Notes: generated by a model from the letters alone, not told the origin. A DNA stretch of 64,000 nucleotides from a virus (IMGVR_UViG_3300045988_082153:2240-66239), one strand, 5' to 3'; positions 10,023 to 63,925 are shown, counted from the first letter of the stretch. Made by a program: numbers and translations.

Positions 10023-10031
10023 TAACTTTTG
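10023..10031 (+). promoter_or_regulatory. candidate -7 box TAACTTTTG for the rightward structural operon
   Basis: Lies 15 nt upstream of the ATG at 10046. Confidence 0.3.
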
Positions 10032-10045
10032 AAACATAAAACGAT

Positions 10046-10543: not shown

Positions 10544-10554
10544 AAACATTCGAC

Positions 10555-46100: not shown

Positions 46101-48386
46101 CTGCAGGAGATAATCATCGGCGGTGAGGACTACACGCCAGAAGAAGGCAGCGGAGCCATCACCCAACTGAACATGGGCAACAAGAGTTTCTTGAAGCGCA
46201 TAGACGTGCGGAACACGAAGATAACGAGCATCATAGCCTCGTACTGTCCACGGCTGACCGAGGTGCTGGCGAGCGGTTCGCAACTTGCGAGCATTGACTT
46301 GGCAGAGACCGCCCCGATAGAAACGCTACAGTTGCCCGGTACTATGACCACACTCTACTTCAAGAACCTGCCACGGCTGACCTATCCCGGCGGACTGACC
46401 ATTGAGGGCGGCATGAGCAAGGTGACGAAGATGTTCTTGGACGAATGTCCGAAGATAGACACCATGACCTTGCTGCGGCAGATAACCACGGCAGGAGCGT
46501 TGAAGAGTGTGCGCATACCCGGCATCAATGCCACGGCAAGTGTGGAGATGCTGCGCGCTATAAAGAATAGCGGTGCCGTGGGAATAGATGCCAACGGAGC
46601 AACCTACGATGAGAGCGGCCAGTGTAGTGGACTGTTGGGACGCTGGATATTGACAGAGTTGGTGGAAGATGAAGAGGTGGAAGCCCTGCAAACGTACTTC
46701 CCCAGACTGACCGTCATCAACTCGCAGTTCTCCATGGTGAAGATAGACGATGTAGTGAGCGGCGACTTCTGCGAGAAATACAGCAATCCCGAGAACGAGA
46801 CAGGTGCCGACTACGACAAGACATTCGTGGCAAGCGGACACACACTGAAAATCGTGCAGAACACCCATGCCTACAAGTGTACCTACAACAGTAAGTTGAA
46901 ACAGATGGAAGGCAGACAACTGAGCGACACCGACTTCAACCGCCTCATTAACGGCGAAACCTTTGATGTGGGCGACAGCGCAGGAGAAGGCTTCGACATC
47001 TTCCACCATTTACCCCACTTCTGGTACAAAGGTGTGAACGACTACAAGAACCAAGTAAAGTATATCTTCCACTCAATGACCGACAACGAGCCGCTGACCA
47101 CCGTAGGCAAGAAGAAAGAAGCAATGCTTTCGGAGTTGCTCTATGCCGAGAATACAGGCATCTATGCAGACGAGGCGCAGGAGGGCGAGACCATCGGCGA
47201 CAACATCATCACGACAGCCGCCAACGTGAATGCCTACCGCATGGACGTGGAAGGCATGAAGCAAGTGAGGTGGCCTGGACTGAACCATGCAAGGCTCGGA
47301 GCCGTGTTCACCGATGCGAGCGGAAAGATAGTAGGCAAGTTCATCATGATGGTGAGCCACACCTACTTTGACTTCACCATAGGCAAATATGTGTTCTGTG
47401 ATGTGCCGAACGGTGCCAAGTGGATGTACTTCACATCGTATCGCGACATCGAAGACACCATGTGTCTTGCCGTTGACAGCGAGAGTTTGGAAGCCATAGA
47501 ACCCGAATGGACGGAGCATACCGTGGGCGATGTGGACAGCCTCGTTGGAACGTACCCCATAACCATAGACGGACTGAAACGCCCCCGAAGCATATCGGGA
47601 GCGGTGCGTTCGAAGAAAGGCGACGGAACATCGCAGACCTCAAACGAATGGGCATACGACAGCGAGGGCAACCCGACGGAGATGCCTAACGGCACGTTGC
47701 ACTTCACCGACAAGGACTTCCAGAACTGCTGCCGTATGCGTGGCGAGGGTTATCAGTTGCAAGACTACGAGATGCACAAGGAGATAAGCAACCTGTGGTG
47801 GGCAACGCACGGCACGACCAACGAGCAAGCCGTTGTGGGCAACGGAGCGCATGATGCGATACTGAACAGCCGCGACGACATAGGCATGGCCGACACCGCC
47901 TATGTGGGCAATGCGATGAACTCAATCATGGGCTTGAAGCACTATGTGGGCTGTGACTCGGAGTGGATGGACTACATAGCAGGAAACGTGAAGAGCTACA
48001 CAGAGTTCTACAAGAACAGATGCGTGGAGACAAACGACGACCCTGTGGACTATGTGTTCCACATCTACGACCCGATAAAGAAGACAGAGCGCATGGTACA
48101 GAGCGTTACCAGTGGCGGCAACTGCGTGGTGAGAGTTGTGCATGGAGCCAAGTGCGACATATTGCCCAGCAAGGTGCATCAGACCGACACCAGCAAATAC
48201 ACGACCCACTATGCGGCAGGACTATGGTTCCCCGGCAGCAGAGGCCGCTGTGTTCTGCGGTCTGGCAACTACTCGTATGCGAACAGCGGTCTCGCTTGTG
48301 CGTACGCGAACTACGCTTCTTCGCACTCGTACACGGACTACGGCGGTCGGCTGGCCTTCCGCGGAAAATTCGTGATTGTTGACTAA
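40164..48386 (+). CDS. giant tail fibre / receptor-binding protein (2,740 aa), the DGR target
   Basis: Fibre-type N-terminus and coiled coil (..GEAGGLAPLDENGQVSSQYLPSYVDD). Leucine-rich repeats at about 46030-46600. C-terminal C-type-lectin-like variable region ending ..GRLAFRGKFVIVD. Confidence 0.85.
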   Translation: MSSIPTKQIDGDVAVSRDVNIGGKATIRGSAKVGHNLTVDGWLEAKNIKGPNKGLFKTAAQLREAYPNPHEGWWALVTVEGSAASDHLGQLYVADGGTWVAQVDSNGNPLLKGNPTVDSTEYMEAVEGMTADLEAVKVDVNQNKSDISSLRTTQTTQGNSINTLNTQMNTAQSDITTLKKTVSDNKTELAKGVAEVQSDLNTFKKTKGEAGGLAPLDENGQVSSQYLPSYVDDALEFGCIVSDVTAQMSSVSKKSDDENCSVVYNKTTNTFLLKYSKPSESEFDLRPTITYYNNWLDGDLYGEATMNGRVPHSGKIFMDVSTNKTYRWAGTKLAVIGSDLALGHTSGTAFPGNEGADIQERMNEVESTADINRQLIENTSTELLCRNTINANNLLSLGEREVTLSVVLEKIFDLENSVRYMKPGIVLSFLSETGIQNKQWTNYGKKTETDWKTEANWTDFGSNGSAIGNTVNVNDICDDTEYTLSTAIKAVLDKEKESGLSYMKAGVVLTYKTADMTSNGSPKWEAYQFTRNVEDINPADLKPWVEFGGGGNNAVPTSDTPEKDGKEAFSTGGAYTNIPNNLRIDTETQGVVKLQLENAEHEAVGDEVQFAVGGGGGESTGTIVSIQFEQSPLYAKAGGSVVMKAAVRSITTQGNNELSNMIEKVVLKDRDTGQTLETFMFNRASSASGDTYDFEMDVSSYFVTATTKRFQLIAYDDAGNTGSRNINVSGVDVTISSVQTLNYTSSTSLAVGGVAKSIPMYKFANNASDKGIKVITEIYMNGEWKTLGEQTILDTYSHSITVDPKSCLTEALTHGAYPLRIHGEDVGSGVRGNYLHTAIMVVEAGNNTPIIAMRWYTDQLKGKRKLYENIEIDYAVYVGDNDEPQATILYDGAKETTAIAYRQQTNTYTKQVLESVHDGTKSVSVQVTCGDSQGETATFVVDGSLVDVEEVTTLREFNITMDSRSNGETDKSIKDGSVEVNVENCNWSSNGFVKDTYGTPTYGTENDKGRMALRIAEDMKARCTYKPFSGTSIEQNGLALSFTIKVKNVEDRTARLIDCLGDNSLGFYVTGEKLVFTCDGATAANQDDLGAQQTAVALYATDKETRFDIVIEPTSIAPYSGIGSIKIYVNGDEVAATYYNAGRFAHNDMTMLFDGTKADIYLYRLTAWATYYNYRQAFNNYLVGQKDTTAMLTEYEKNQVMASQTAEGITKDRPTLQACMNAGLCCVTLLKNADTPDIEQSYPGYLDKLDGDKKTKAYFDWVIRFPDRPWQDCKVYNVPTTNQGTTSSLRPIKNKKGKFKGCKIEMLHTEEDFKDNPTALAKFKTAQKMAAKSQIQVIDGGLWVKTITIKVDYSDSTGANNGATMELFNKVQRAMGADYMTPAQNAYNGEGTMNTSIDSVTCALFRTDQQSVDATNETYAYFHAKANFNVDKGNPSFFGFEKVSGYNGDCLNYGDFKELVAEKGQDINIFKVQSLAKSDELIASNIYMLSEYCGEKHIFLENDGTGKMAECDATADPTEVDKSLAEVIADDVKNYDWGTVYLTNDYKYVKYTGGKWKDTTGKMQYDQSVKKWTVTGRVLNPVECFEYLKYDSLCWLQGVNGIEDMMKLDPATSKPIWLSYYESRYPDDDDLNDLYAQGKKVPYRLYKWLRWTQDCSQDRTEADGDITIHGKTVAGTKENRLKKFCEELHEWANVKSTLSYVVGSDYVLAVDQRSKNMMITFYLDTNGLVRAYFNHWYDGDCVWLSDNDCGVTIPWDLDSKVDPKHYYQGWNSVMFQQAYAGDKFWLDDKGSTTVTLHDVAQDMRTAEADGIKIFSADGCKKLWITDRIDKWAKITSSFDNERKYIENSKAGANYYYAVHGLRYEDLPVTFEKRFAYRDGFYQVGELYTNPFKMRAVGTDISIKITAAQDAFFGLGVDRADACVDSCYLKAGESYTLKSGMTATGSGTMLYVFGAKYLASLDVSGCTPKAEGWDISNCDLLQEIIIGGEDYTPEEGSGAITQLNMGNKSFLKRIDVRNTKITSIIASYCPRLTEVLASGSQLASIDLAETAPIETLQLPGTMTTLYFKNLPRLTYPGGLTIEGGMSKVTKMFLDECPKIDTMTLLRQITTAGALKSVRIPGINATASVEMLRAIKNSGAVGIDANGATYDESGQCSGLLGRWILTELVEDEEVEALQTYFPRLTVINSQFSMVKIDDVVSGDFCEKYSNPENETGADYDKTFVASGHTLKIVQNTHAYKCTYNSKLKQMEGRQLSDTDFNRLINGETFDVGDSAGEGFDIFHHLPHFWYKGVNDYKNQVKYIFHSMTDNEPLTTVGKKKEAMLSELLYAENTGIYADEAQEGETIGDNIITTAANVNAYRMDVEGMKQVRWPGLNHARLGAVFTDASGKIVGKFIMMVSHTYFDFTIGKYVFCDVPNGAKWMYFTSYRDIEDTMCLAVDSESLEAIEPEWTEHTVGDVDSLVGTYPITIDGLKRPRSISGAVRSKKGDGTSQTSNEWAYDSEGNPTEMPNGTLHFTDKDFQNCCRMRGEGYQLQDYEMHKEISNLWWATHGTTNEQAVVGNGAHDAILNSRDDIGMADTAYVGNAMNSIMGLKHYVGCDSEWMDYIAGNVKSYTEFYKNRCVETNDDPVDYVFHIYDPIKKTERMVQSVTSGGNCVVRVVHGAKCDILPSKVHQTDTSKYTTHYAAGLWFPGSRGRCVLRSGNYSYANSGLACAYANYASSHSYTDYGGRLAFRGKFVIVD
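48244..48359 (+). repeat. DGR variable repeat (VR)
   Basis: 116 nt aligned to 49198-49313 with 11 mismatches, all at positions where the template repeat has A. Confidence 0.93.
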
Positions 48387-48415
48387 GCGGAAAGCGAAAG
48401 CTCGAAAAAAGCGTC

Positions 48416-48458
48416 AGAGGGAGAGCCGACGAAAGGAGGCTGCTCCCTCTCCCTTTTT
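48416..48458 (+). terminator. intrinsic terminator 1 after the tail-fibre gene
   Basis: GAGGGAGAGCC / GGCTGCTCCCTC stem (11 bp with one bulge), followed by TCCCTTTTT. Confidence 0.55.
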
Positions 48459-48481
48459 ATCTCGCGTCAGCGAGATTTTTT
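48459..48481 (+). terminator. intrinsic terminator 2
   Basis: ATCTCGC-GTCA-GCGAGAT is a perfect 7-bp stem followed by TTTTT. Confidence 0.6.
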
Positions 48482-48534
48482 ATAGGCTCTGCAAAATAAA
48501 AGTAAAAGTTGTATGATATATCAACTTTTTGTAT

Positions 48535-48542
48535 TACCTTTG
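48535..48542 (+). promoter_or_regulatory. -7 box TACCTTTG placed 4 nt before the toxin ATG (leaderless-type promoter)
   Basis: Exact TAnnTTTG match. The same geometry is seen at 58567-58574 (-). Confidence 0.4.
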
Positions 48543-48546
48543 CACC

Positions 48547-48882
48547 ATGAACTCAGAACGGAGAATACTGGTTTACAAAGATTATTTCCTCACGTTCTAC
48601 CGCGCCTTGGAAGCAGGAGCGCAGAAGAAGATAGACTATGTGCTTGATGTGCTGAAGATGCAGGACAGAGTGAGCGAAAAATTTGTAAAGTACATAAAGG
48701 ATGGTCTCTATGAAATAAGAGCCTCCTACAATGGTAATATATATCGAGCGTTCTTCATTTTCGACGAGGGCAACATCGTGATGCTCTTCAACGGCTTTCA
48801 GAAGAAAACCCAGAAGACACCCTCCAAAGAGATAGACAGAGCACTTGAACTTAAAAAGGAATATTATGCAGGAAAGAAATGA
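48547..48882 (+). CDS. RelE/ParE-superfamily toxin, phage Gp49/HigB-like
   Basis: ATG at 48547. DGLYEIRASYNGNIYRAFFIFDEGNIVMLFNGFQKKTQKTPSKEIDRALELKKEY is the typical Gp49-like/DUF891 pattern. Confidence 0.8.
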   Translation: MNSERRILVYKDYFLTFYRALEAGAQKKIDYVLDVLKMQDRVSEKFVKYIKDGLYEIRASYNGNIYRAFFIFDEGNIVMLFNGFQKKTQKTPSKEIDRALELKKEYYAGKK

Positions 48883-49168
48883 CATTAGCAGTTTTGATGC
48901 CATTCTTGACGCCAAGTATGGAGCAGTAGGAACTGCGGAAAGAGAGGCTTTCAGAAAAGAAGCCACCAACTATTGCGTGGGACAGATTATCTATGATGCC
49001 CGTAAGCAGGAGCACATGACCCAATCTGACCTCGCAAAGAAAGTCGGTACGGACAAGACCTACATATCACGCATAGAGAAAGGTGTGATAGAGCCTGGTG
49101 TGGGAATGTTTTTCCGCATCATTGACGCTTTGGGACTAAAAGTGGACATTGTGCGTCCGATAGTATAA
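48866..49168 (+). CDS. XRE-family HTH antitoxin (HigA-like)
   Basis: MTQSDLAKKVGTDKTYISRIEKGVIEPGVGMFFRIIDALGLKVDI. It overlaps the toxin stop by 17 nt. Confidence 0.8.
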   Translation: MQERNDISSFDAILDAKYGAVGTAEREAFRKEATNYCVGQIIYDARKQEHMTQSDLAKKVGTDKTYISRIEKGVIEPGVGMFFRIIDALGLKVDIVRPIV

Positions 49169-49197
49169 CAAGAAACAAAAGGCAGAAAATCCCACGC

Positions 49198-49313
49198 GCC
49201 GCTGTGTTCTGCGGTCTGGCAACAACTCGAATGCGAACAGCGGTCTCGCTTATGCGAACGCGAACAACGCTTCTTCGAACTCGAACACGAACTACGGCGG
49301 TCGGCTGAAATTC
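49198..49313 (+). repeat. DGR template repeat (TR)
   Basis: Non-coding copy of the VR, rich in AAC triplets, lying 99 nt upstream of the RT ATG. Confidence 0.93.
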
Positions 49314-49411
49314 TAAGTGGTACTTAATCGGGGGACTCTGACGTGGCACGAGGATTGCCGCAAACAAACTCCGAGGGATTAGAGCCTCGGCAACAGCATG
49401 ATAAACGAATT

Positions 49412-50899
49412 ATGGAAAGCCGGAACACGACATTAACCACATGTGGGGAGTGCGCAAGTATCTCCCCACAGGACAGGAAGGCTGTCAACACATTGGAAGA
49501 CTTGTTAGGACAGGTAGAAGCACCGACTTCTATCTGTTTTCCTTTATATAACCTCATCCCAGAAATTATTTCGGACGAAAACATGGAACGCTCGTTCAAG
49601 CGTGTCATGTCGAACCTTCATAACGCAGACACGCGAAGCGGAATAAAATGGAGGGAGACGGTTGTTATAGATGGTGTGGAATGTACTCCACGCATGGTGC
49701 GCTATATGAGACGCAAGAAAGAAATTATTGCCGAGTTGAAAGAACAAATAGGTAATGGAACTTTCCGCGTTGTTCGTTTATCCTCGTTTGAAGTGGACGA
49801 TGGTCCGAAGAAAAGAATGGTTCAAGCACCTCCTGTTGTGAAACGTATAGGCTGCAATGCCATCATGGAGATTGTGGAAAAACACCTTTCGCCATTGCTA
49901 ATTGAAAACACGGCAGCTTCGATAGAAGGACGCGGCCCACACGGACTATTCCACAAGATGCAGGAAGTGAGAGCCGAGAACCCCGACCTTATATATTATT
50001 ATCAAAGCGACTATAAAGGTTATTATGACCACATATTGCACGACAAGATGATTGACATCATCAAGCAGTATATAGCCGACCCGATATTACTCCCCATACT
50101 AATAGACTTCGTTAAAGTATTGCACCCGGATGGCAACGTAGGCATCAGCAAGGGACTACGCTCCTCGCAGTTCTTCGGCAACCTGTACCACAATGACATT
50201 GACCATGCCATGATAGAGGAGTGTGGAAAGGATAACTACAACCGCTTTTGTGACGACATATACATATATGGAGACAACAAAAAAGAGTTGTGGAAACACA
50301 GGGACACACTGCATAGGCTAAGTAAACCCTACAATCTGATAATCAAGCCGAGCGAGAAGGTTGCTCCAGTGAGTGCAGGAATGGATGCACTGGGTTATAT
50401 TGATTATGGTGACCACTCACGAATACGCAAGCGCACAAAGGTGAACGCTGCGAGGAAACTCGCCAAGATAAAGTCGAGAAAGCGAAGGCAACAAATTATA
50501 GGCTCGTTCAAAGGAATGGCATGTCATGCGGACTGCCAGCATTTATATTATATATTAACAGGTAAAAACATGAAGAAATTTTCAGAAATGGGCGTGACCT
50601 ATAAGCCAGCAGACGGAAAGAAACGTTTTCCCGGTAAGGTGACACGCTTGGGTGACATCGTGAAAATCCCGGTAGAAATTCACGACTACGAGACACTGGA
50701 CACGAAGTTTGGCGAAGACCGCTACTTAGTGTCGTTCAAGAACCCTGCGACACAGGAATGGGGCAAGTTCTTCACCGCTTCGGACGAGATGAAAGGCATC
50801 CTTGACCAGATAAGCGACATCGAGGATGGCTTTCCGTTTGAGACCGTCATCAAGTGCGAACAGTTTGACGGCAGCAAGCGAAAGTATAACTTCACCTAA
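49412..50899 (+). CDS. DGR-type reverse transcriptase with a roughly 100-aa C-terminal extension
   Basis: PLYNLIPEIISDENMERSFKRV (N-terminus), QSDYKGYYDHI (motif A), GLRSSQFFGNLY (DGR SQ motif), FCDDIYIYG (xxDD), SFKGMACHADCQHLY. This is followed by an extra domain, KNMKKFSEMG..KRKYNFT. Confidence 0.88.
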   Translation: MESRNTTLTTCGECASISPQDRKAVNTLEDLLGQVEAPTSICFPLYNLIPEIISDENMERSFKRVMSNLHNADTRSGIKWRETVVIDGVECTPRMVRYMRRKKEIIAELKEQIGNGTFRVVRLSSFEVDDGPKKRMVQAPPVVKRIGCNAIMEIVEKHLSPLLIENTAASIEGRGPHGLFHKMQEVRAENPDLIYYYQSDYKGYYDHILHDKMIDIIKQYIADPILLPILIDFVKVLHPDGNVGISKGLRSSQFFGNLYHNDIDHAMIEECGKDNYNRFCDDIYIYGDNKKELWKHRDTLHRLSKPYNLIIKPSEKVAPVSAGMDALGYIDYGDHSRIRKRTKVNAARKLAKIKSRKRRQQIIGSFKGMACHADCQHLYYILTGKNMKKFSEMGVTYKPADGKKRFPGKVTRLGDIVKIPVEIHDYETLDTKFGEDRYLVSFKNPATQEWGKFFTASDEMKGILDQISDIEDGFPFETVIKCEQFDGSKRKYNFT

Positions 50900-50972: not shown

Positions 50973-51443
50973 ATGGAAAAGATATACGGCACAACCAAAC
51001 GTCAGGACGGACTGCAACGAGTAGGCAAGAATAAATGGCTGCTCTATTTCGGTCTGTATGAAACAGAGAGCGGTACATACGAATACCGCCATACGTTCAC
51101 GCACAAGCCCACGCTTGACGAGATAAAGAAACTTGTTTGGGCTACGATAGACGCAGAGACCAAAGACAAGATTGTTAATCAGTTTGAGTATGAGGGCATC
51201 AAGGTTTGGCTCACAGACGAGAAGCAGCGTAACTTTGCCTCTATTGAGAACAACGAAAGTGTTACATTCCCACTTACGTTGAAGCTCAACGAGAAAGCCG
51301 ACGCTACACCAATCTATCATACCTTCCAGACGCGAGACGAGTTCAAGAAGTTCAGCGAGGCCGCTGCATGTTTCATTCTTGAAACCATCAGGAACGGATG
51401 GAAGGAGAAGGACAATGTAGATTGGGACGTGTTTGACATGTAA
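50973..51443 (+). CDS. hypothetical; DUF4376-like (tail-fibre assembly-associated) pattern
   Basis: ATG at 50973. ATIDAETKDKIVNQFEYEGIKVWLTDEKQRNFASI resembles the DUF4376 motif (from memory). Confidence 0.55.
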   Translation: MEKIYGTTKRQDGLQRVGKNKWLLYFGLYETESGTYEYRHTFTHKPTLDEIKKLVWATIDAETKDKIVNQFEYEGIKVWLTDEKQRNFASIENNESVTFPLTLKLNEKADATPIYHTFQTRDEFKKFSEAAACFILETIRNGWKEKDNVDWDVFDM

Positions 51444-52473: not shown

Positions 52474-53070
52474 ATGATTAAAATTCTAATCGACAATGGG
52501 CATGGAGTGAACACTAAAGGCAAGCAATCGCCTGATGGTCGTTTGCGTGAATATGCCTATGCAAGAGAGATTGCAACCCGAGTTATGACCGAGCTTCGCG
52601 GCATGGGCTACAATGCAGAGCGTGTTGTGGAAGAGGAGCAGGACGTTGCACTGTCTGTACGCTGCAAGCGTGTGAACGACATCTGCAAGAAAGTAGGCAC
52701 CAAGAACGTACTGCTTGTCTCGATCCACAACAATGCAGCAGGAGGCGACGGCAAATGGCATGAGGCGCGAGGCTTTTCTGCCCATGTAGGCATGAACGCA
52801 TCCGCAAAGAGCAAGGCTTTGGCGCAGTATCTTTGGAACGAAGCAATACTTCAAGGACTGAAAGGCAACCGTTGTGTGCCCTATGCCAAGTACATCGCCC
52901 AGAACCTTGCTATCTGTAGAGACACGAACTGCCCTGCAGTGTTGACGGAGAACCTTTTCCAAGACAACAAAGAAGACGTTGACCTGCTGTTGAGTGAGGA
53001 AGGCAAGGAGAAGGTGACAGCCGTGCATGTGAACGCTATTGTTGAATTTATCAAAGACTATTATGGATAA
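52474..53070 (+). CDS. N-acetylmuramoyl-L-alanine amidase (endolysin)
   Basis: ILIDNGHGVNTKGKQSPDG .. LLVSIHNNAAGG .. AVLTENLFQDN is an Amidase_3-like pattern. Confidence 0.8.
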   Translation: MIKILIDNGHGVNTKGKQSPDGRLREYAYAREIATRVMTELRGMGYNAERVVEEEQDVALSVRCKRVNDICKKVGTKNVLLVSIHNNAAGGDGKWHEARGFSAHVGMNASAKSKALAQYLWNEAILQGLKGNRCVPYAKYIAQNLAICRDTNCPAVLTENLFQDNKEDVDLLLSEEGKEKVTAVHVNAIVEFIKDYYG

Positions 53071-53608
53071 GAAGATTTTAGGCTTTTTGTGGGCAATGTT
53101 AGGTGTGGTTGTTGGCATCGTCTGTCTGGTTGGCATCGTGCATTGCGGAGGCTACGGCAAAGATCATGAACCTGCAGAAGTGGTGCGTGACACTGTGATT
53201 GACACCATACCTTACTATAAGCCAGTACCCAAGGACAGTTTGGTGTTGACGTACAAGACCGTGACCCTTCCCAAGAGTGACAAGGCGCAGCCATCTATCC
53301 GTGCGGACACACAACCGGCAGAAAGCTGTACACAAAACGATGCGGCAGATGTGCGTGACAGTGCGGAGGTTACTATCCCCATCATCCAAAAGATGTATAA
53401 AAGCAGTGACTATACGGCATGGGTGAGCGGATATGACGTGCAGCTTGACAGCATCTATGTATATCCCAAGCATGAGTATGTAACGCGCAAGATTAAGCAG
53501 CCTCCTAAGAAATGGCATATCGGTGTGACGGCAGGTTACGGCTTCGGCAAACAAGGTATGCAGCCATATATAGGCATCGGACTAACGTATTCACTAATCT
53601 CATTCTGA
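53063..53608 (+). CDS. membrane-anchored protein after the endolysin (spanin-like position)
   Basis: ATG at 53063 overlaps the amidase end. N-terminal TM segment ILGFLWAMLGVVVGIVCLVGIV; C-terminal GVTAGYGFGKQGMQPYIGIGLTY. Confidence 0.55.
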   Translation: MDKKILGFLWAMLGVVVGIVCLVGIVHCGGYGKDHEPAEVVRDTVIDTIPYYKPVPKDSLVLTYKTVTLPKSDKAQPSIRADTQPAESCTQNDAADVRDSAEVTIPIIQKMYKSSDYTAWVSGYDVQLDSIYVYPKHEYVTRKIKQPPKKWHIGVTAGYGFGKQGMQPYIGIGLTYSLISF

Positions 53609-53609
53609 C

Positions 53610-54152
53610 ATGGAGACAATCACCGTACAGATATTCAAGGACGACGTGTATGAAGAGGTGGCAAAGGCTACCGACTACACAGGCGCGAAGCTGATAGACG
53701 GCGACGATGGAGCGCGAGACCGCATCCTCGCCACGGACAGCGACCTTTCAGACCTCGGCAGGTTTTGGGAGGAGTCGATGCTTGCCACCAATGAGAGGCT
53801 GAAAGAGATGATCGTGAGTGGAGCTACGAAGCAGATACTTGTAACGATAACTCCTATTCCACCCATACAACAACCTAAAGATGTGGAGGCACAGAGCATC
53901 GTTGTTCCGTCACTTGCGACGAGGACAGGCTACGAAGCTGTGCTGGAGGTGAGCAAGTCGTTTGACAAAGGGATGAAGGACAATGTACAGTCGGCCCTTC
54001 GCAACTTCTTCATTGCCTCAATCATCGCCCAGTGGTTCAAGCTGGCCAACAAGGGCGAAGCCGCTGACTACTTCAATCAAGCCGGAGAAATGATGGACGG
54101 TGCGGAGCGTTTGCTATACAGCCGCAAGAGACCGACCCGTCCGAGTGACTAA
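53610..54152 (+). CDS. paralog 1 of a tandem three-member family (about 175 aa)
   Basis: Shared C-terminal pattern ..ALRNFFIASIIAQWFKLANKGEAADYF..YSRKRPTRPSD. Confidence 0.65.
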   Translation: METITVQIFKDDVYEEVAKATDYTGAKLIDGDDGARDRILATDSDLSDLGRFWEESMLATNERLKEMIVSGATKQILVTITPIPPIQQPKDVEAQSIVVPSLATRTGYEAVLEVSKSFDKGMKDNVQSALRNFFIASIIAQWFKLANKGEAADYFNQAGEMMDGAERLLYSRKRPTRPSD

Positions 54153-54171
54153 CAAATAATATTTTATTGAC

Positions 54172-54687
54172 ATGGAAGGACAAGAAAAGACATTAGGTGC
54201 CAAGAAGAGCGTGACGGCAACCATCAAAATTTCGTGGCTTCTCTTCGACATCATGAACGAGACCTTCTTGCGTGGCCGTACTATCCAGAACAAGGACAAC
54301 CACAAGGAGGTGGCGAGCATGTTTGCCTCTGAGGACGAAGAAAACCGCGAGAAGATACTTCGCTCTATCAAGAAAGGCTTTGCCGAGGTGAAGACAGAAC
54401 TGTCGGACTACCTCAACGAGGACGGCACAACCACAGACAACAGCCACTATGACGGCAGCACAGACCTGACGCTTAACCTCACAATGCCGAGCAACTTCAA
54501 CGAGGCTGCAACCACCGGTGTAGGCGAGGCTATCCACGACTACCTGAAGAACTCTGCCATCGCCGAGTGGTACATGGTGACAAACAAGGCAGACGCTGAA
54601 CAGTACATCGCCCTTGCACAGAGAAGTTTGCTGAGCATCCAACAGGCAGTGAGCAAGCGTAGCCGCCCGAAGCGTCCAACAGACTAA
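54172..54687 (+). CDS. paralog 2 of the tandem family
   Basis: ..AIHDYLKNSAIAEWYMVTNKADAEQYI..SKRSRPKRPTD. Confidence 0.65.
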   Translation: MEGQEKTLGAKKSVTATIKISWLLFDIMNETFLRGRTIQNKDNHKEVASMFASEDEENREKILRSIKKGFAEVKTELSDYLNEDGTTTDNSHYDGSTDLTLNLTMPSNFNEAATTGVGEAIHDYLKNSAIAEWYMVTNKADAEQYIALAQRSLLSIQQAVSKRSRPKRPTD

Positions 54688-54699
54688 GGAGGAACGCTT

Positions 54700-55227
54700 A
54701 TGAGCTGCTGCATAGAGAATGAGGGAGCGAAGCTAAAGGTAAAGCTTACCTTCGAGCGAGAACAGCTGCTCTATGACATCAAGAACAATGCCTATGTGGA
54801 GAGCCATGTAATGGCCCCGGAAACCGAGCACGCCAAGCACATGGTGGCTGACGTTGGCGAGGAGGGCAATGTGGACCGGGTGACAAGAGTGCTGGATTTG
54901 GGTATCTCCATGTGCCGGGAAATACTTTACCCTTGGTCAAAGAAGGAAATCGTCAAACTCTGTCTTGACGACAAGCTAAAGGAGAGGGAGCAATATCATA
55001 TAAACATGAGTGTGCCCAACACTATTTCGCAAACCACGCTGACCTATGTGGAAAGGCTGATACATGAATACCTTGTGTGCCGAGGCGTGGCCGACTGGCT
55101 AAGCATAACTAATCCGTCGAAGTCGGAGACGTGGCTTGCCAAGGCTGCTGAGGCAGAGCAAGAAATACGCACCTCCATCCATTCAAGAATGGAGAGGAAG
55201 CGTATCAGGCAACATTGGTTAGGATAA
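54700..55227 (+). CDS. paralog 3 of the tandem family (more divergent)
   Basis: ..LIHEYLVCRGVADWLSITNPSKSETWL..SRMERKRIRQ. An AAGGAGG lies 7 nt upstream of the ATG. Confidence 0.6.
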   Translation: MSCCIENEGAKLKVKLTFEREQLLYDIKNNAYVESHVMAPETEHAKHMVADVGEEGNVDRVTRVLDLGISMCREILYPWSKKEIVKLCLDDKLKEREQYHINMSVPNTISQTTLTYVERLIHEYLVCRGVADWLSITNPSKSETWLAKAAEAEQEIRTSIHSRMERKRIRQHWLG

Positions 55228-55231
55228 TAAA

Positions 55232-55270
55232 GACAAGAGCCGAGGTGCATCACGCATCCCGGCTCTTGTC
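55232..55270. terminator. hairpin at the convergent gene junction (bidirectional terminator candidate)
   Basis: GACAAGAGCCG / CGGCTCTTGTC is a perfect 11-bp stem with a 17-nt loop, lying between the + block end (55227) and the - block end (55327). Confidence 0.55.
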
Positions 55271-55326
55271 ATAGTTACCTAAAACAATCTAACCTTAATA
55301 AATAACTAAACCTAATAATATCTTCT

Positions 55327-58197
55327 TTATCTCGGCTTGTTGGTTTGTCGAGGTGTGAACTCGACTGACGCGCCGTAGATGTTTTCATCTGGTGAGAGTG
55401 TGGCTACACCGGCAATTCGGAAATACTTGTAAGGAGAGCCACGGAAGCCCTGTAGGTAATGGTCTTTACTTGACCATACAAGGTGCCAGTTCTGCAAGTC
55501 GCGCGAACCGTAGAGGGCCGTGGATACGTTCCCTTTGCGGAACAGTCCACGCTGTATGACACTGGCGACAGTCTTCAATACGTTTGCCGCTTCAAGCTTG
55601 AGAGGGCGTGTGACGTACAGGCATTTGACGGTATCCGTTATTGGGACAGAGAAGTTGAGTACAGCATTTTTTGTGTCCATGGCCAGTGCATCCGGATATG
55701 AATTGAGGTGTGAGACGATGTTAGAGAACATCATTCCCCATTGATTTGTCTTCAGCGAGAACACATAGGCGTATGTGATACCGGGCGCATAGACAATGAC
55801 GCGCTGATGAACATAGTCGTATAGCATCCGGCACTGCTTCAAAAACTTGGTGAACGATAGCGTAGGCAAGCACTTGTCTGTTGCAGGTTCATGTCCGAGC
55901 ATAGTGTGCAGCTTGTCGAACCCGGGAAGCCGGAGCGCATCGAACGGATATTCGGAGTTGATGGCTTCGGATATGCACTGTGTCTGCGAGCCGCTGATCA
56001 GCATTATGCCGCGGTCGGTTGGGAAGAGAACAGCGGAGTCGAGCTGTGTGATGCCGTCGGGATTGATGCACACGTCGCGCGTGATGGGCTGCTTGGCAGA
56101 ATAGGTGCCAGTAGACGAAACCTCTAACGCCCATACACCCTCAGAGGTGAAGGCATAGAGAGGAAACTGACCGAACTGTCCTTCAGAAAGAGCCTTTGCT
56201 GCAGAACAGATGCCCTTAATCTCTCCCGTGCCAACGGTGTTGATACCAAGTACCGGGAAGTAGAAGGGGTTGTTGACTTCGGAGGTGTAGATTTTGTTGG
56301 GTATGTCTATTTTGCCCTCGTAATCCGTTATTGTCGGTACATTGTTGACATTGTAATTATTCCAGCGAATACTCTCATAGTCAATCATGGCATACGCCCC
56401 ATTCAGAAAATCATGTGGACGCAGGTCTATAATCATGGAACCACCGCCAAAGCCAGCTGTAGATGTATCGTATCCAAATCTGCTGTTTATCACCATTTTC
56501 ACAGCATTGGGGTTCGGGTAGAACAAATAACAAGCACATGACGTTTTTGTCTTTTCTGTGTAAAGAACTTCATTCGTGTTGGGGTCTTTATGCTCTCGTA
56601 CTTTTGACATCCAACACGCATAATTTCCTTCTGTCCGTACCATATATGTTTTGCCACCTTCTTTTATATAGACACTTATATTCAGAGTATCGTCAAACCA
56701 AGAAAGACCGTAAGAAAGTGTTTTGCCGTCTTGCTTATACGTATCCAATGTTTTGTCACAATAGGCGAACATTCCGTAAGGTGTGAACCCGGCATAAGGC
56801 TCACGTTTTATGCCCGAAAGATTGAGCCTTGAATTATATACTTGCGAGAAAGATGCCACAAGACGGTCGTGTGTCAGATAATCATCTGTCATTGCCTCAC
56901 GAGTAACTAAAGACTGGAGGTATTCATTTTCAATAGGAATTTCTGTGCGTGCCGTAGCCTTAGCATCATCCAATGTAATAGAGTGCAACTTGTAGAAAGA
57001 AGAACAATCCTTCAAATTTTCATAGTTCTTGTTGTCCGTAAACTCTGGCAGATGAAAAGACTCCGCAGGATTACTCCTGTCTGGTGAAAAATATAGTTTG
57101 TATATTTCTTTGTAGTCCCATTCGAGGTAATGGTCTAAGAATGTGTTGTCACCGCTAATTGGGGCAAGAACTTTATCTTCAGACACAGAAGAAGCAAAAG
57201 TTGCAGTACTGCCAAGTGTATAGCCGTCATGGTATAATCTCCCGATAAACTTGCTACTCAAATTATCGGTATCAGCCAAGTAGGAAATCTTTCCGTCTTG
57301 GTCATAGGTGTAAATCGGTTTAGAAATAAAGACATCAATGGAGGTTATAATATCTTTCCATTTGTCCAAATCATAATAATCATCAACTCGCAATACTTTG
57401 TAATCCAAGGAACAAGCCATCATCATTATATCACAATTGGCATTAGTAAATCCACCATCGCCATAAGCATTTGTCCACAGAACGATAGGTGCAGGCGTTG
57501 TAGCTGGGTTCATGAGAACAGGCGCAGAATGACAAACCAAAGAGCCATCGAACAAGCGCAGCGCATAACGAACAAAGAAAGGGAAACAGAAGCGTCCATT
57601 ATCAATAGTCTGTTCGCGAATGAACTTGTTGAGCTTGGCCATCACTTGCTCAGTTATTCTTGTCTTGTTGTTATCGGAGAATTCGTTGCGTAAATTTCCC
57701 TTGGAGATCTTGTCAAAAGAAATAGTGAAAGTAGATTTACTGCTGTCAGAAAGACTAAACAAACGAGGATGACCAATAAGGCCGAATGAAACCTGTATGT
57801 CTGGTAGGTGATTTCCAAGACTTGTGTATTTGTCGCTCTCCCATAGCAAGTACAATATCTGCTCGTTACTGAAAGCGAGTAATGTATTACCTACGGCATT
57901 GCAATGAGTAAGGCCATAGAATGAACATATACGAGTCGTTGTATTTCCGTCTTTGTTTCGCCAAGATAACTCATTTTTTCCTGTATTGTATATGATGTAA
58001 TGCGTGAACGAGGAAGTCTTGTGTATAAACTTGACGACCTCACCATCTTGAAGCTGCATAACATCTGATGGCGCGAGGATTGGCTTCAAGGCACCGTCTT
58101 CTGGCAGCAGGTTGATGGACACAGCAAGAGAACCGTCGGAACATTCATAGTCGGACGGCACAGCGGAGAAGCCACTATATTTTATTTCTTGGTTCAT
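55327..58197 (-). CDS. large hypothetical protein (956 aa), virion/tail structural candidate
   Basis: Long uninterrupted ORF with beta-rich, N/S/T/Y-rich composition and no enzymatic motif recognised. 4-nt overlap with the upstream gene. Confidence 0.75.
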   Translation of the reverse strand: MNQEIKYSGFSAVPSDYECSDGSLAVSINLLPEDGALKPILAPSDVMQLQDGEVVKFIHKTSSFTHYIIYNTGKNELSWRNKDGNTTTRICSFYGLTHCNAVGNTLLAFSNEQILYLLWESDKYTSLGNHLPDIQVSFGLIGHPRLFSLSDSSKSTFTISFDKISKGNLRNEFSDNNKTRITEQVMAKLNKFIREQTIDNGRFCFPFFVRYALRLFDGSLVCHSAPVLMNPATTPAPIVLWTNAYGDGGFTNANCDIMMMACSLDYKVLRVDDYYDLDKWKDIITSIDVFISKPIYTYDQDGKISYLADTDNLSSKFIGRLYHDGYTLGSTATFASSVSEDKVLAPISGDNTFLDHYLEWDYKEIYKLYFSPDRSNPAESFHLPEFTDNKNYENLKDCSSFYKLHSITLDDAKATARTEIPIENEYLQSLVTREAMTDDYLTHDRLVASFSQVYNSRLNLSGIKREPYAGFTPYGMFAYCDKTLDTYKQDGKTLSYGLSWFDDTLNISVYIKEGGKTYMVRTEGNYACWMSKVREHKDPNTNEVLYTEKTKTSCACYLFYPNPNAVKMVINSRFGYDTSTAGFGGGSMIIDLRPHDFLNGAYAMIDYESIRWNNYNVNNVPTITDYEGKIDIPNKIYTSEVNNPFYFPVLGINTVGTGEIKGICSAAKALSEGQFGQFPLYAFTSEGVWALEVSSTGTYSAKQPITRDVCINPDGITQLDSAVLFPTDRGIMLISGSQTQCISEAINSEYPFDALRLPGFDKLHTMLGHEPATDKCLPTLSFTKFLKQCRMLYDYVHQRVIVYAPGITYAYVFSLKTNQWGMMFSNIVSHLNSYPDALAMDTKNAVLNFSVPITDTVKCLYVTRPLKLEAANVLKTVASVIQRGLFRKGNVSTALYGSRDLQNWHLVWSSKDHYLQGFRGSPYKYFRIAGVATLSPDENIYGASVEFTPRQTNKPR

Positions 58198-58562
58198 AAC
58201 GGATGCTTAAATATTATTGGTAAAACTGTTTCGCCGTCGCGTTTCTCTGCTTGGCCTATCATGAATGAGGCACGCTGCTCTTTTATGCCGCAGTTGTCGA
58301 GCATGAGTCGTGCGAGGAGGACGGAAGATGCACAGTAGTTCTTGGAACCTTTCTTTGTCGGGTGACACTGTGCGACATGCCGTCCTATCGCATTTTGGTG
58401 CCGGACAGCAAGCAGGTAGCACTCGCCAAGGTGGAAGGCTACGTTGATACTGTCGCCCGGCTGGAGCGAGAGTAACCACACGACTCTTGCCGTAATGGAA
58501 ATGCGGCCATTACGGGAAAATGTTATGTCGGGGCGGCGTGTTCGTTCCAAGAGTTTAATCAT
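58194..58562 (-). CDS. AbrB/SpoVT-like fold candidate, partner of the 956-aa protein
   Basis: ITFSRNGRISITARVVWLLSLQPGDSINV resembles the AbrB looped-hinge DNA-binding motif. Confidence 0.5.
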   Translation of the reverse strand: MIKLLERTRRPDITFSRNGRISITARVVWLLSLQPGDSINVAFHLGECYLLAVRHQNAIGRHVAQCHPTKKGSKNYCASSVLLARLMLDNCGIKEQRASFMIGQAEKRDGETVLPIIFKHPL

Positions 58563-58566
58563 AATG

Positions 58567-58574
58567 CAAAGATA
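58567..58574 (-). promoter_or_regulatory. -7 box TATCTTTG placed 4 nt before the ATG at 58562 (leaderless-type promoter)
   Basis: The reverse complement of 58563-58574 reads TATCTTTGCATT, followed directly by ATG. Confidence 0.4.
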
Positions 58575-58804
58575 TAGGGTTGTTGATGAAAGATGGTTTT
58601 AAGTTTAGAGGGACGTTCAATCCATCATGTGATGATGAATTGAACGTAGAAGTGAAACTCCCGGCACAACCTTGGTATTTGTGGGTAGTGCTTTGGATCC
58701 TCATTGTAGGGGAGGTATATGCACCGTTCCTTGGTGTTGCAGTGAATACCTCTCCTACGTAGCTTGTAGAGCATGTTAGCCCTGCGTTTGGGATGGCGCA
58801 TGAA

Positions 58805-59245
58805 TTACACGCTAATGCCTAACCCAAGTAAAGGCAACATCATTTCAAATTGTCTTCCCTCATCGCCCTGCTTGTAGAACTCAGGAGAAATGATGGCGAA
58901 CCCTTTCTTTTTCAAGTTCTCTATTTTGGCTGCAACCTCCTCCAACATCTTGTCGTCAGCTCCACCAAGAGTTAGCAGAGATATAGCCTTGTTGATACTT
59001 CCATGAGTTAAAGGGAAACACACCATTGCGACTTGTCCCTCATCAAACACGTTGTAGGAATTCTCGAACACCTGCTTAGGCGACCAAGAGTCGTAGGTGC
59101 TGCCGTCTGGGTTGTTGTACTGTACGTGATAACCTTCACGCCATTCGTGGTTGTCCTCGTTCTTGCGAGCGTAACCTTTCTCTACTGCGGCCAATTCGTT
59201 CATAGGTTCGGCCTTAACCTGTTTTGTTCCGATGTAAGTTTTCAT
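58805..59245 (-). CDS. hypothetical phage protein
   Basis: The N-terminus MKTYIGTKQVKAEPM..EGYHVQYNNPDGSTYDSWSPKQVFENSY is a recurrent phage family pattern. Confidence 0.65.
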   Translation of the reverse strand: MKTYIGTKQVKAEPMNELAAVEKGYARKNEDNHEWREGYHVQYNNPDGSTYDSWSPKQVFENSYNVFDEGQVAMVCFPLTHGSINKAISLLTLGGADDKMLEEVAAKIENLKKKGFAIISPEFYKQGDEGRQFEMMLPLLGLGISV

Positions 59246-59315
59246 TGTTTTATTGTTTTATGTTTACCATGACGTTTCAAACACACTCCACATTTGATGA
59301 AAGTGTTTTTGTTGA

Positions 59316-59609
59316 TCATCTTCTTGCCTTTCTTTTGCGTTTAGGGTTACGGATTGGGTACAGCCTGCCGAATTCATCGTGCCACGCATCGTAGCCGTGT
59401 CCGTGTTCGACGCGCCCTCCGGGATAGGAGCGTGAGTAGATGAGGACACGTCCCCACTTGTCCATGACGTAGCAGGTGCTGTAGTTCTTGCCTCTTATTG
59501 ACAGGCTCCAGTGTTCGCGGATGCGAAGGTAGAGGTACATGGCCTTGTTGGTAAGGCGTTGAGGCATTACCTTGTAGTTGTCGATTTTTCGTGCAATTCT
59601 TCTTTTCAT
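59316..59609 (-). CDS. small basic protein, member of the M-x-R-(Q/I)-ARKI family
   Basis: MKRRIARKIDNYK.. with C-terminal NPKRKRKARR. Confidence 0.55.
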   Translation of the reverse strand: MKRRIARKIDNYKVMPQRLTNKAMYLYLRIREHWSLSIRGKNYSTCYVMDKWGRVLIYSRSYPGGRVEHGHGYDAWHDEFGRLYPIRNPKRKRKARR

Positions 59610-59824
59610 ACGAATTTGTTTCTTGAAAGTTTTTCTTTATAATAGAATGGCTTAATCTTGCCGTCCGCTACGCCATTCCAATAGTAGCGGAGAGCCTTTT
59701 TAATTTGCGGTTGGCGGTATGTTGCACACCACTGGAGAGCACGGTCGAACCATGCGCTGCTCATGCGGTCGATTGGGGTGTACTTTACCATGCGGACTAT
59801 TTTCCGGGCTTGTCGTGAGCGCAT
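59606..59824 (-). CDS. small protein, member of the M-x-R-Q-ARKI family
   Basis: MRSRQARKIVRMVK..; 4-nt overlap with the downstream gene. Confidence 0.55.
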   Translation of the reverse strand: MRSRQARKIVRMVKYTPIDRMSSAWFDRALQWCATYRQPQIKKALRYYWNGVADGKIKPFYYKEKLSRNKFV

Positions 59825-60042
59825 CCTTTCTCCTCCTTTTTGTCGGAATAATCGACCTTTAATACAAATTTTCTGCCAATATATTCTTTTCTACCCCGAA
59901 GATCTTTGAGTGTCAGACCTTTTGGAACTTTAATATGCTTACACATATATAGTGACACTCTAAGGTTTTTGACATCGACATTTTTTGAACGATGGTCTGT
60001 AATTTCGATGCAGCGCATTGTCAGCTTATAAACTTTATTCAT
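59797..60042 (-). CDS. hypothetical small basic protein
   Basis: 81-aa ORF in the minus-strand chain. Confidence 0.5.
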   Translation of the reverse strand: MNKVYKLTMRCIEITDHRSKNVDVKNLRVSLYMCKHIKVPKGLTLKDLRGRKEYIGRKFVLKVDYSDKKEEKGCAHDKPGK

Positions 60043-60085
60043 TGCTTATGACCACTAATTTATAACCATATTTTAGAGTTGTATC

Positions 60086-60697
60086 TTATTTTACAAGATA
60101 AAAATTGTAAACGAAAACCCAAGGGTTGCTCTCCCATGTGCCCTTGCCGCTGATTTTGTCTATCAGGGCAGCGTAGGCTTCTTTCGCTGTTCTGAACGAG
60201 GAGTTGGCAAGACCGTGATACCAATACGTCGTGCCTTCAAGCCCTACGTTGTCGTCACGCCAAATGCCTTCTTTTAGGCAATCTTCTTCGCTGATGTCTT
60301 GCAGACGTTCTACGCGGATGTTGGTAATGCGAATATGATGGGGCATAAGGTCTGCACGGACAAACATCTTGTTGTTGCACCCTCTCTCGTATTTGATGCA
60401 CTCCAAAGGCATTCCGTTTTTGCCACAAAGACGGTAAAATTCATCGTTCTTTATCAAATCTTCGTATTTCTGGGCGATGGCTATGGTTTCGCCTATTTTA
60501 TAGTGGGCGGTTTTAAACCTGTTGTTGCAAAGCGTAAGCAGAGCCTGCCCATTGTCGAGCTTTTTGAGTTGAAAATCTTCACCATCAAACACAACAAACC
60601 CGTTTTGCGTATAGACTATTCTTCTTGTCTGCGTCTTTCGACCGTCAAGTACGGCTTGTGTTAAGCCGCACTCGTCGTTGAACATTATCTTTTTCAT
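60086..60697 (-). CDS. ASCH-domain-like protein
   Basis: The N-terminus MKKIMFNDECGLTQAVLDGRKTQTRRIV is typical of ASCH/PUA-like domains. Confidence 0.6.
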   Translation of the reverse strand: MKKIMFNDECGLTQAVLDGRKTQTRRIVYTQNGFVVFDGEDFQLKKLDNGQALLTLCNNRFKTAHYKIGETIAIAQKYEDLIKNDEFYRLCGKNGMPLECIKYERGCNNKMFVRADLMPHHIRITNIRVERLQDISEEDCLKEGIWRDDNVGLEGTTYWYHGLANSSFRTAKEAYAALIDKISGKGTWESNPWVFVYNFYLVK

Positions 60698-60730
60698 AAA
60701 AATATTATTAATAAGTTTGAGTATTTAAAT

Positions 60731-60919
60731 CTATCGTCCGAGCGGCTCTGGAGGTATCGCACGACTAAATTTGCGTACGATACGCTCGGCACGGCGTATG
60801 CGTTCGTCAATGAGTGTTAGTAGAAGCACGTTAGAAGGACGCACGTCATATCTATTCCAATAGTTAGCCGTTCTACGCCCTGATCTCTTGATGATTTTTC
60901 TCGCTTGCCGAAGTTTCAT
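60731..60919 (-). CDS. small protein, member of the M-x-R-Q-ARKI family
   Basis: ATG at 60919 (MKLRQARKIIKRSGRR..), 2 nt after the upstream stop. Confidence 0.5.
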   Translation of the reverse strand: MKLRQARKIIKRSGRRTANYWNRYDVRPSNVLLLTLIDERIRRAERIVRKFSRAIPPEPLGR

Positions 60920-60921
60920 AT

Positions 60922-62441: not shown

Positions 62442-62444
62442 AAA

Positions 62445-63311: not shown

Positions 63312-63317
63312 TAAAGG

Positions 63318-63920: not shown

Positions 63921-63925
63921 ATAAA

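Follow-up and report, generated by a model that had tools for sequence, protein, structure and literature searches.

Sequence evidence for a Hankyphage-type diversity-generating retroelement in a predicted temperate Bacteroidales phage

Does the pair of 116-nt repeats that straddles the end of a giant tail-fibre-like gene in a viral genome belong to a functional diversity-generating retroelement (DGR), and of which kind? The repeats lie in the 64,000-nt stretch IMGVR_UViG_3300045988_082153:2240-66239 (hereafter the window, with coordinates counted from its first letter), for which an earlier sequence-only reading had proposed that a coding variable repeat (VR), a non-coding template repeat (TR) and a downstream reverse transcriptase (RT) gene together form such an element. 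Pairwise comparison of 48244-48359 with 49198-49313 reproduced the gapless 116-nt alignment (offset 954) and its 11 mismatches, at all of which the downstream, non-coding copy carries A and the coding copy T (five times), G (three) or C (three), and the limits of the tail-fibre open reading frame (ORF; Table 1) place the VR in its last 143 nt, as first described. With 27 A in the 116 nt of the TR, the chance that all 11 mismatches fall on A is, by arithmetic, ~(27/116)^11, roughly 1e-7. The interpretation as a DGR, with a VR in a tail-fibre-like gene, a non-coding TR and an RT, passed every computational test applied, and we estimate at about 93% the probability that the window, as a temperate phage of Bacteroidales, carries a functional DGR of the kind known from Hankyphage and BS-TP4. 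The element adds one member to the family already published for those two phages.

Adenine-specific divergence of the two repeats

Read in frame, the TR contains 15 A-containing codons, three more than the 12 first counted, and nine of the 15 are recoded in the VR, as reported. One of the recoded codons, AAA to GCC at 48354-48356, was misattributed to mutagenesis: the same difference recurs in 58 of 59 related VR/TR pairs and in the isolated phage BS-TP4, and is a fixed boundary at which VR/TR homology stops, comparable to the initiation of mutagenic homing sites IMH and IMH*. Only eight true substitutions therefore remain in the window, distributed over 24 mutable adenines (48267-48340), all 24 of which occupy codon position 1 or 2. 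The rewritten codons comprise 10 AAY codons and four with a single A, which by arithmetic would allow up to about 1.5e14 protein variants.

A search of IMG/VR with the RT protein returned 143 related stretches, from which 80 loci (RT 70-99% identical) were kept; the 59 of them that carry both repeats were used for all counts of VR/TR variation, and two isolated phages, BS-TP4 (PQ571277) and BKO1-TP3 (PQ571269), are also among the relatives. TR adenines hold 816 of the 841 VR/TR mismatches (97%), and there are 11 distinct TRs as against 58 distinct VRs. Column by column, each of the 24 adenines is polymorphic among the VRs, and the non-A columns are either invariant or co-vary with the TR. One and the same TR is found in 12 loci, the window counted, yet these loci have 12 different VRs. 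Near-identical genomes show the same restriction: L004 matches the window at 100% of the 1,500 nt before the VR and at 99.84% of the 2,500 nt after it, and its VR nevertheless differs at 15 positions, all 15 in TR-A columns, while L003 (99.9% identical to the window) shows 10 VR differences, again all in TR-A columns. The population variation on which the sequence-only reading had staked its case is thus restricted to TR-adenine columns. Since genomes more than 99.8% identical in their flanks have different VRs, diversification must have been very recent in this exact lineage, and the pattern reads as the signature of recent, repeated mutagenic retrohoming in the window's own lineage.

Repeats and mosaicism are common in tail-fibre genes, and the pair could in principle be an ordinary duplication or gene-conversion remnant of the tail-fibre 3' end that has accumulated normal mutations next to an unrelated RT. 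Such a remnant is refuted by the adenine-specific, TR-constant population pattern of the 59 loci and of L004 and L003: 97% of the mismatches are adenine-specific and affect one copy only, they are restricted to the first two codon positions, hypervariability of the coding copy goes with an invariant template copy, and the RT belongs with DGR RTs (see below). We accord this explanation practically no weight. Equally improbable, in our judgement, is that the VR differences among metagenome relatives are assembly artefacts in the form of VR/TR read chimeras, an idea to which the many IMG/VR contigs that end at the VR and some 'TR' copies with A-to-N changes (L037, L038, L055) lend some colour; a chimera only mixes two existing sequences, whereas three alternative bases are seen per A column, and the isolate genome of BS-TP4 shows the same adenine-only pattern between its VR and TR.

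The related loci fall into three classes of VR-TR spacing (347, about 954 and about 1,012 nt), and some of them depart from the common arrangement. TR-position copies in L037, L038, L033, L048 and L055 carry A-to-G/T/C changes otherwise expected only in VRs and keep the normal TR 5' flank and AAATTC end; these copies could be VR/TR read chimeras, or could reflect real TR erosion or self-targeting. IMG/VR contigs L010, L017, L019, L028, L050 and L055-L063 end ~900-1,000 nt upstream of the TR, near the VR, which fits assembly breaks at a hypervariable or repeated site. At L002 5990-6135 (BKO1-TP3) and L076 ~2777-2900, VR and TR are collapsed to a single copy, such that the tail-fibre ORF runs into TR-type sequence (all-Asn codons, ...GARLKFCWLN*) followed by RT-3 (see below) and the RT. 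Apparently, recombination between VR and TR removed the IMH, the terminator, the promoter and whatever cargo was present, and thereby disabled the DGR; BKO1-TP3 was isolated as a viable phage despite this. Two further candidates for collapse, L034 and L075, proved on reading to have a normal TR context, leaving L002 and L076 only.

The reverse transcriptase and the RT-3 spacer RNA

The ORF that follows the TR matched Pfam RVT_1 (E 1.3e-9), confirming the RT gene of the sequence-only reading. Its best match in the PDB was 8ub7 (a 328-aa 'Reverse transcriptase' that we take to be bRT of Bordetella phage BPP-1) with an E-value of 4.8e-18, group II intron RTs following at 8.6e-5; tblastn places BPP-1 brt on the same stretch of the query, and the alignment with 8ub7 shares the SQ(L/F)F(A/G)N(V/L)Y (SQxFxNxY) motif and xxDD. 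Among 50,697 phage records searched by tblastn, 44 were matched, including BS-TP4 (73% identity), BKO1-TP3 (70%), Hankyphage (39.8% over aa 48-495), BPP-1 (29%), LoVEphage and ANMV-1; the named relatives with DGR RTs among the listed phage matches are Hankyphage, BPP-1 and ANMV-1. By match scores and by these named relatives, the RT groups with DGR RTs. A group II intron, retron or defence RT was rejected: the NCBIfam group II, retron and Drt RT models all score far below their curated cut-offs, and no intron RNA flanks the gene.

The spacer between TR and RT holds a structured RNA. Comparison of 46 distinct spacers from Bacteroidales genomes, done before the Rfam match was known, revealed an element of constant length that runs from AAUCG to GAGCCUCGGCAAC, and the window spacer matched Rfam RF03068 (RT-3) over the full model, positions 1-148 of 148 (Table 1). 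The helix UCGNN/NNCGA, which is P1 of RT-3, is 97.4% paired with 42 double changes, a value reached by none of 500 shuffles. For the hairpin with a CGWG loop (P2), 33 different stems were counted with a loop-anchored script that by construction favours pairing, a procedure adopted because MAFFT had misregistered the 3' arm of P2 when distant spacers were aligned. P3 (UCGGC/GCCGG) also covaries, as CAGC/GCUG, CAGU/ACUG, CACU/AGUG and CGCC/GGCG, and the model helices P1b and outer P4 are poorly paired in the window. The hairpin CCGAGG/CCTCGG (49371-49376 and 49385-49390) to which the sequence-only reading had drawn attention is present as described, and the idea of a conserved structured RNA in the spacer held up. 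The proposed fold did not: on the same alignment its arms are 77.5% paired, a value equalled by 458 of 500 shuffles and therefore without covariation, and its CCGA is used by P1 and its UCGG by P3.

RT-3 was present in 20 of 20 relatives tested, in six of six further loci and in Hankyphage, always just 3' of the TR; in one relative (L044 ~2826-2911) an insertion of ~85 nt separates the TR end from RT-3. RT-3 has been described only as an RNA motif near RT genes with no role assigned, whereas here it always adjoins the 3' end of a DGR TR; the related motif RT-10 occupies the TR-brt gap of BPP-1, and other RT motifs have been speculated to serve DGRs (Weinberg et al., 2017, PMC5737381). The RNA overlaps the annotated RT gene, whose ATG (49412-49414) lies within 49397-49414 and whose first 66 nt are RT-3 sequence, and the codons of a conserved N-terminal 'MESRN' coincide with the conserved RT-3 nucleotides GGAAAGCCGRAA. 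The RT genes of Hankyphage and L165 begin only downstream of RT-3.

Beyond the polymerase core, the RT bears a C-terminal domain of 109 aa that is better conserved than the core itself. An AlphaFold2 (AF2) model of this domain (mean predicted local distance difference test score, pLDDT, 73) has the element order b1-b2-b3-helix-b4-b5 of an oligonucleotide/oligosaccharide-binding (OB) fold, and Foldseek matched it to the single-stranded DNA-binding protein (SSB)-like PrgE, the PRD1 SSB P12 and RPA70N, followed by viral SSBs and DUF669, so that the predicted structure makes an SSB-like OB fold probable. In every family member a Met (M-K/R-x-F) stands exactly at the start of the OB-like domain (50567-50572 in the window), gene callers often report proteins of ~105 aa from this Met, and many representatives of phrog_19665 are 103-109 aa long. 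The one example that was followed, P0179, proved to be the C-terminus of a fused 464-aa RT, and a stand-alone OB protein is at most a candidate. Two RTs from related contigs (P0007 and P0048) have an in-frame deletion of ~92 aa that removes the SQ and xxDD motifs and keeps the N-terminus and the OB-like C-terminus; as judged from these deletions, they are dead RTs within the family.

Searching ~185,000 species-representative genomes with the C-terminal domain identified 141, essentially all Bacteroidales (Bacteroides, Phocaeicola, Prevotella, Muribaculaceae, Parabacteroides and Alistipes, along with a few evidently mis-binned metagenome-assembled genomes, MAGs). Contigs L083 and L084, which carry this phage module (88% identity in the RT C-terminal domain), are filed under MAGs of Sphaerochaetaceae and Eggerthellaceae and are almost certainly mis-binned Bacteroides phage. 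Of 80 fetched genome loci, 47 had a repeat pair of at least 50 nt upstream of the RT, and in nearly all of these 47 the mismatched positions are adenines in the copy nearer the RT.

The BPP-1 paradigm depends on Avd, and avd is present in about 74% of DGRs. Neither an Avd-family (PF05635) nor an HRDC match was found in the 44 window ORFs or in neighbouring genes, with a divergent copy elsewhere being possible since Avd is poorly conserved. Relatives without the toxin-antitoxin pair described below have no ORF between target and TR, only a terminator and a promoter, and the 64-aa ORF in the target-TR gap of Hankyphage has no family match. C-terminal extensions that await explanation occur in ~20% of DGR RTs, and ~26% of DGRs are without avd (Wu et al., 2018).

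The target protein and the end of the variable repeat

The last 528 aa of the 2,740-aa target match phrog_14959 (E 1e-187) and phrog_5302, annotated as 'tail protein'; a probable tail-fibre role is proposed from its position and its relatives. Searches of the whole protein and of its C-terminus against Pfam and NCBIfam gave no useful match, and the fold was therefore taken from structure prediction. An AF2 model of the last 298 aa (pLDDT 62, predicted template-modelling score 0.71) had TaqVP (5vf4, probability 0.99) and Mtd (1yu1, probability 0.89), the two DGR variable proteins of this type with solved structures, as its top PDB matches in Foldseek, ahead of formylglycine-generating enzyme (FGE)-like and C-type lectin folds. 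Given the low template-modelling (TM) scores of 0.33-0.41, these matches are supportive rather than conclusive of an Mtd/TaqVP C-type-lectin fold for the predicted VR domain. Variable proteins of more than 2,000 aa are a recognised group in the DGRs of Bacteroides prophages (Macadangdang et al., 2024). Further upstream in the gene, a 31-nt direct repeat (47787-47817 and 47824-47854, 77% identity) probably reflects a peptide motif that recurs.

At the 3' end of the VR, a GC-rich 13-mer (CGGCGGTCGGCTG) that is present in both VR and TR precedes the GCC/AAA boundary, beyond which the VR continues as GCCTTCCGCGGAAAATTCGT and the TR as AAATTCTAAGTGG. This segment is kept in all lineages, with CTGGCCTTCCGCGG as the Hankyphage form. 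The IMH/IMH* of BPP-1 likewise have a GC-rich start and a VR-specific remainder (Wu et al., 2018), and by analogy 48341-48375 may act as an IMH. The 10-bp palindrome TTCCGCGGAA that had been pointed out at the VR 3' boundary does lie at 48357-48366, inside the VR-specific part of this IMH-like segment, but its proposed standing as a conserved DGR structure was not borne out. It corresponds to the codons TTC CGC GGA AAA (F-R-G-K) of the C-terminal ...RLAFRGK, in which R, L, A, F and G vary little or not at all in the protein alignment. In relatives it changes to TTCCGCGGCA or TTTCGCGGAA in an uncompensated manner, and Hankyphage has TTCCGCGGCC at this site and no 10-bp palindrome; from these two observations, conservation acts on the palindrome as coding or IMH sequence rather than on a structural element.

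The target-side inverted repeat (cruciform) of the DGR is better sought in the 12-bp GC-rich repeat at 48416-48450, a candidate whose arms pair completely (100%) in 18 distinct sequences, one CG-to-UA change being compensatory. It recurs in distant relatives, and its variants across the family include AGATGGAG/CTCCATCT and AGAAGGGG/CCCCTTCT. A GC-rich inverted repeat downstream of the IMH is found in about a third of DGRs. With its T run, the element (48416-48458) also has the shape of an intrinsic terminator of the target gene, so that putative terminator and DGR roles are inseparable here, and a second terminator-like hairpin follows at 48459-48476.

Table 1. Positions of the DGR components and adjoining features in the window.
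Feature	Position	Strand	Remarks
DGR target, tail-fibre-like structural protein, 2,740 aa	40164-48386	+	VR at C-terminus
VR	48244-48359	+	Mutable tract 48267-48340; 24 positions facing TR adenines
IMH-like VR 3' end	48341-48375	+	GC-rich CGGCGGTCGGCTG common to TR, then VR-specific GCCTTCCGCGGAAAATTCGTGA containing palindrome 48357-48366
12-bp GC-rich inverted repeat and T run	48416-48458	+	Arms 48416-48427/48438-48450, one bulged G
Probable Bacteroides-type promoter -7 box	48533-48544	+	TACCTTTGCACC; resembles TAnnTTTG; just before toxin gene
Gp49/RelE(HigB)-like toxin gene	48547-48882	+	Pfam Gp49, E 1.3e-22; phrog_3445 'toxin'
HTH_3/XRE antitoxin-like gene	48866-49168	+	Pfam HTH_3, E 3.4e-14
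TR 5' flank, conserved	49180-49197	+	AGGCAGAAAATCCCACGC; kept with and without toxin-antitoxin pair (alignment)
TR, non-coding	49198-49313	+	Would encode ...SGNNSNANSGLAYANANNASSNSNTNYGGRLK
Spacer RNA, Rfam RF03068 (RT-3)	49326-49477	+	56.4 bits vs gathering 40.5; E 1.4e-10
RT-3 P1	49328-49334/49369-49374	+	Covariation
RT-3 P2 hairpin	49343-49347/49357-49361	+	CGAGGAU loop; covariation
RT-3 P3	49387-49391/49419-49423	+	Covariation
RT-3 P3b	49397-49401/49410-49414	+	Holds ATG 49412
RT-3 P4	49442-49447/49465-49470; inner 49449-49453/49458-49463	+	
DGR RT, 495 aa	49412-50899	+	From ATG 49412; motifs GLRSSQFFGNLY and FCDD; core aa 126-379 aligns to 8ub7
RT C-terminal domain, aa 387-495, 109 aa	50570-50899	+	phrog_19665; probable SSB-like OB fold
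DUF4376-like gene	50973-51443	+	Pfam DUF4376 (weak); phrog_19239

Cargo, relatives and proposed mechanism

The VR-TR gap of the window is occupied by two genes that overlap by 17 nt with the toxin first, the HigB/RelE-HigA type II layout, and we predict from this that they encode a HigBA-like toxin-antitoxin pair. The Bacteroides promoter -7 consensus is TAnnTTTG, and a similar box immediately precedes the toxin gene; where the pair is missing (relatives L013, L139 and L155), and in Hankyphage, the same box is found ~30-40 nt upstream of the TR. A scan for sigma-70 promoters gave no signal above shuffles, the sigma-70 model being inapplicable to Bacteroides. Because the box lies close to the TR in relatives without the pair, and because the 18-nt flank of the TR is kept in both arrangements, the toxin-antitoxin cassette looks to have been inserted between the DGR promoter and the TR. 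The conserved flank (49180-49197) may itself have a role in the DGR RNA, and a single transcript covering toxin, antitoxin, TR and RT is predicted. In BS-TP4 this slot holds another cassette, of the same family but distinct: the two toxins are 43% identical over 60 aa, compared with 73% for the RTs. Downstream of the RT, a DUF4376 gene is also found in BS-TP4, BKO1-TP3, Hankyphage and L165.

Two phages resemble the window most. BS-TP4, whose DGR in gp14 has been reported from myDGR (PMC12694917), shares the order of target (gp14), RelE-like toxin, XRE regulator, TR, RT and DUF4376, and its VR and TR are likewise 116 nt long, with A-only differences and the GCC/AAA boundary. Its nucleotide identity to the window, ~72%, is confined to the DGR module, and the toxin identity given above marks the toxin-antitoxin cassettes as different. 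Hankyphage (Bacteroides phage p00, BK010646), whose DGR activity has been shown experimentally (PMC12135933), with heterogeneity at A sites of the VR in clonal lysogen culture, also has a 116-nt VR/TR pair whose VR ends a tail-fibre-like protein that exceeds 2,000 aa, a VR-specific end in ...CTGGCCTTCCGCGG, a TAnnTTTG box ~30 nt upstream of the TR, RT-3, and an RT that has the same C-terminal domain and precedes a DUF4376 gene. It differs in its distant RT, in a VR-TR gap of 370 nt without toxin-antitoxin genes and in an RT that starts after RT-3. Hankyphage is, moreover, a 43-kb Mu-like transposable phage, whereas the phage in the window is ~64 kb long and encodes a P22-type portal, a 6,640-aa polyvalent protein and an integrase-like product. 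Among isolated phages, megablast returned no match to the window's first 25 kb.

With the BPP-1 system (mtd-avd-TR-brt) the window shares adenine-specific transfer from TR to VR, a VR at the 3' end of the gene for a receptor-binding lectin-fold protein, the GC-rich IMH start with a VR-specific remainder, a GC-rich inverted repeat downstream of the VR and an RT homologous to bRT. Unlike BPP-1, it has no Avd, its RT is extended at both the N- and the C-terminus (at the latter by an OB fold, if the model is right), RT-3 takes the place of RT-10, the inverted repeat lies ~57 nt past the end of VR/TR homology and doubles as a terminator, and toxin-antitoxin genes stand where avd would be.

From these parts a mechanism can be proposed. 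A transcript would probably start at the Bacteroides-type promoter at 48533 and run through the toxin-antitoxin genes, the TR, RT-3 and the RT gene, and the RT would recognise the structured RT-3 RNA beside the TR. It would then copy the TR into cDNA with misincorporation opposite the 24 template adenines, an outcome seen in the sequences and an enzymology extrapolated from BPP-1, and the cDNA would replace the VR at the 3' end of the 2,740-aa gene, again with the outcome apparent and the path modelled. The direction of transfer would probably be set by the VR-only IMH-like sequence (the GC-rich block and GCCTTCCGCGG...), perhaps with the downstream 12-bp inverted repeat. In this way the 10 AAY and four single-A codons, presumably on the surface of a C-type-lectin fold, would be rewritten, and the TR would keep the master copy.

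Several points weigh against a functional DGR of this type. For this particular genome activity is a prediction from sequence, and how the transcript is built, where priming occurs and what the IMH, inverted repeat and OB domain do are likewise inferred. Mutagenic retrohoming, with RT-dependent cDNA and VR replacement, has been demonstrated in the literature for the relatives BPP-1 and Hankyphage. No Avd or HRDC accessory gene is detectable, and the lectin-fold model is only moderately confident (pLDDT 62, TM 0.33-0.41). The RT start codon is uncertain because ATG 49412 sits inside RT-3 helix P3b and the Hankyphage RT begins after RT-3. Finally, function has been lost within the family, as a few relatives carry a dead RT (P0007, P0048) or a collapsed VR/TR (L002, L076). 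The lack of an Avd, the ~92-aa catalytic-core deletions of these two RTs and the collapse in BKO1-TP3 and L076 would also be expected of a fossil DGR that diversified its target in the past and is now inactive in this genome, with a frozen VR. The window RT, by contrast, is full length with intact SQ and xxDD motifs, all 24 TR adenines are kept, RT-3, the IMH-like segment and the inverted repeat are intact, and VRs differ between genomes more than 99.8% identical in their flanks, such that we regard a fossil as improbable and retain a functional DGR as the preferred interpretation.

Other genes of the window concern the phage as a whole. A 6,640-aa ORF (11763-31685, +) just upstream of the P22-type portal gene combines InPase, ddrB-ParB, SNF2/Helicase_C and MuF_C domains, as expected of a phage 'polyvalent protein'; a Phage_int_SAM_5 integrase-like ORF lies at 7411-8907 and an Amidase_3 endolysin at 52474-53070; and within 1-11000 and 53000-64000 there are genes for lysogeny and recombination (RecT, a PDDEXK-like DUF3799 protein, a CI-type helix-turn-helix protein and YopX), which fits a temperate phage. 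No tRNA genes were found in the window.

As a DGR, the element is expected biology, as DGRs acting on very large tail-fibre-like proteins are known to abound in gut Bacteroides phages. What the family comparison adds, and what specialists might use, is RT-3 as a DGR spacer RNA, the probable OB-fold C-terminus of an Avd-less family and the toxin-antitoxin cargo in the predicted DGR transcript. We speculate that the SSB-like OB C-terminus of the RT supplies a nucleic-acid-binding accessory role in place of Avd. A broader proposal, which we put forward tentatively and rate as somewhat doubtful, is that Hankyphage-type DGRs form a distinct Avd-independent subclass across Bacteroidales phages, defined by RT-3 3' of the TR, a fused and conserved OB C-terminus and no Avd, in which the OB domain and RT-3 would replace Avd in positioning the template or handling single-stranded cDNA. 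On this proposal, the window's own lineage would in addition have a HigBA-like operon, inserted between DGR promoter and TR, that shares a transcript with the TR and perhaps controls it. The mechanism of Avd-less DGRs, about a quarter of the total, is not understood, and the family offers a clean natural example with a candidate substitute domain. The orphan Rfam motif RT-3 can now be assigned a task, that of spacer RNA next to the TR in a family of DGRs, and the VR-TR gap emerges as a cargo slot for toxin-antitoxin genes, which would there share the DGR transcript. For all of these points there are cultivable relatives, BS-TP4 and Hankyphage lysogens.

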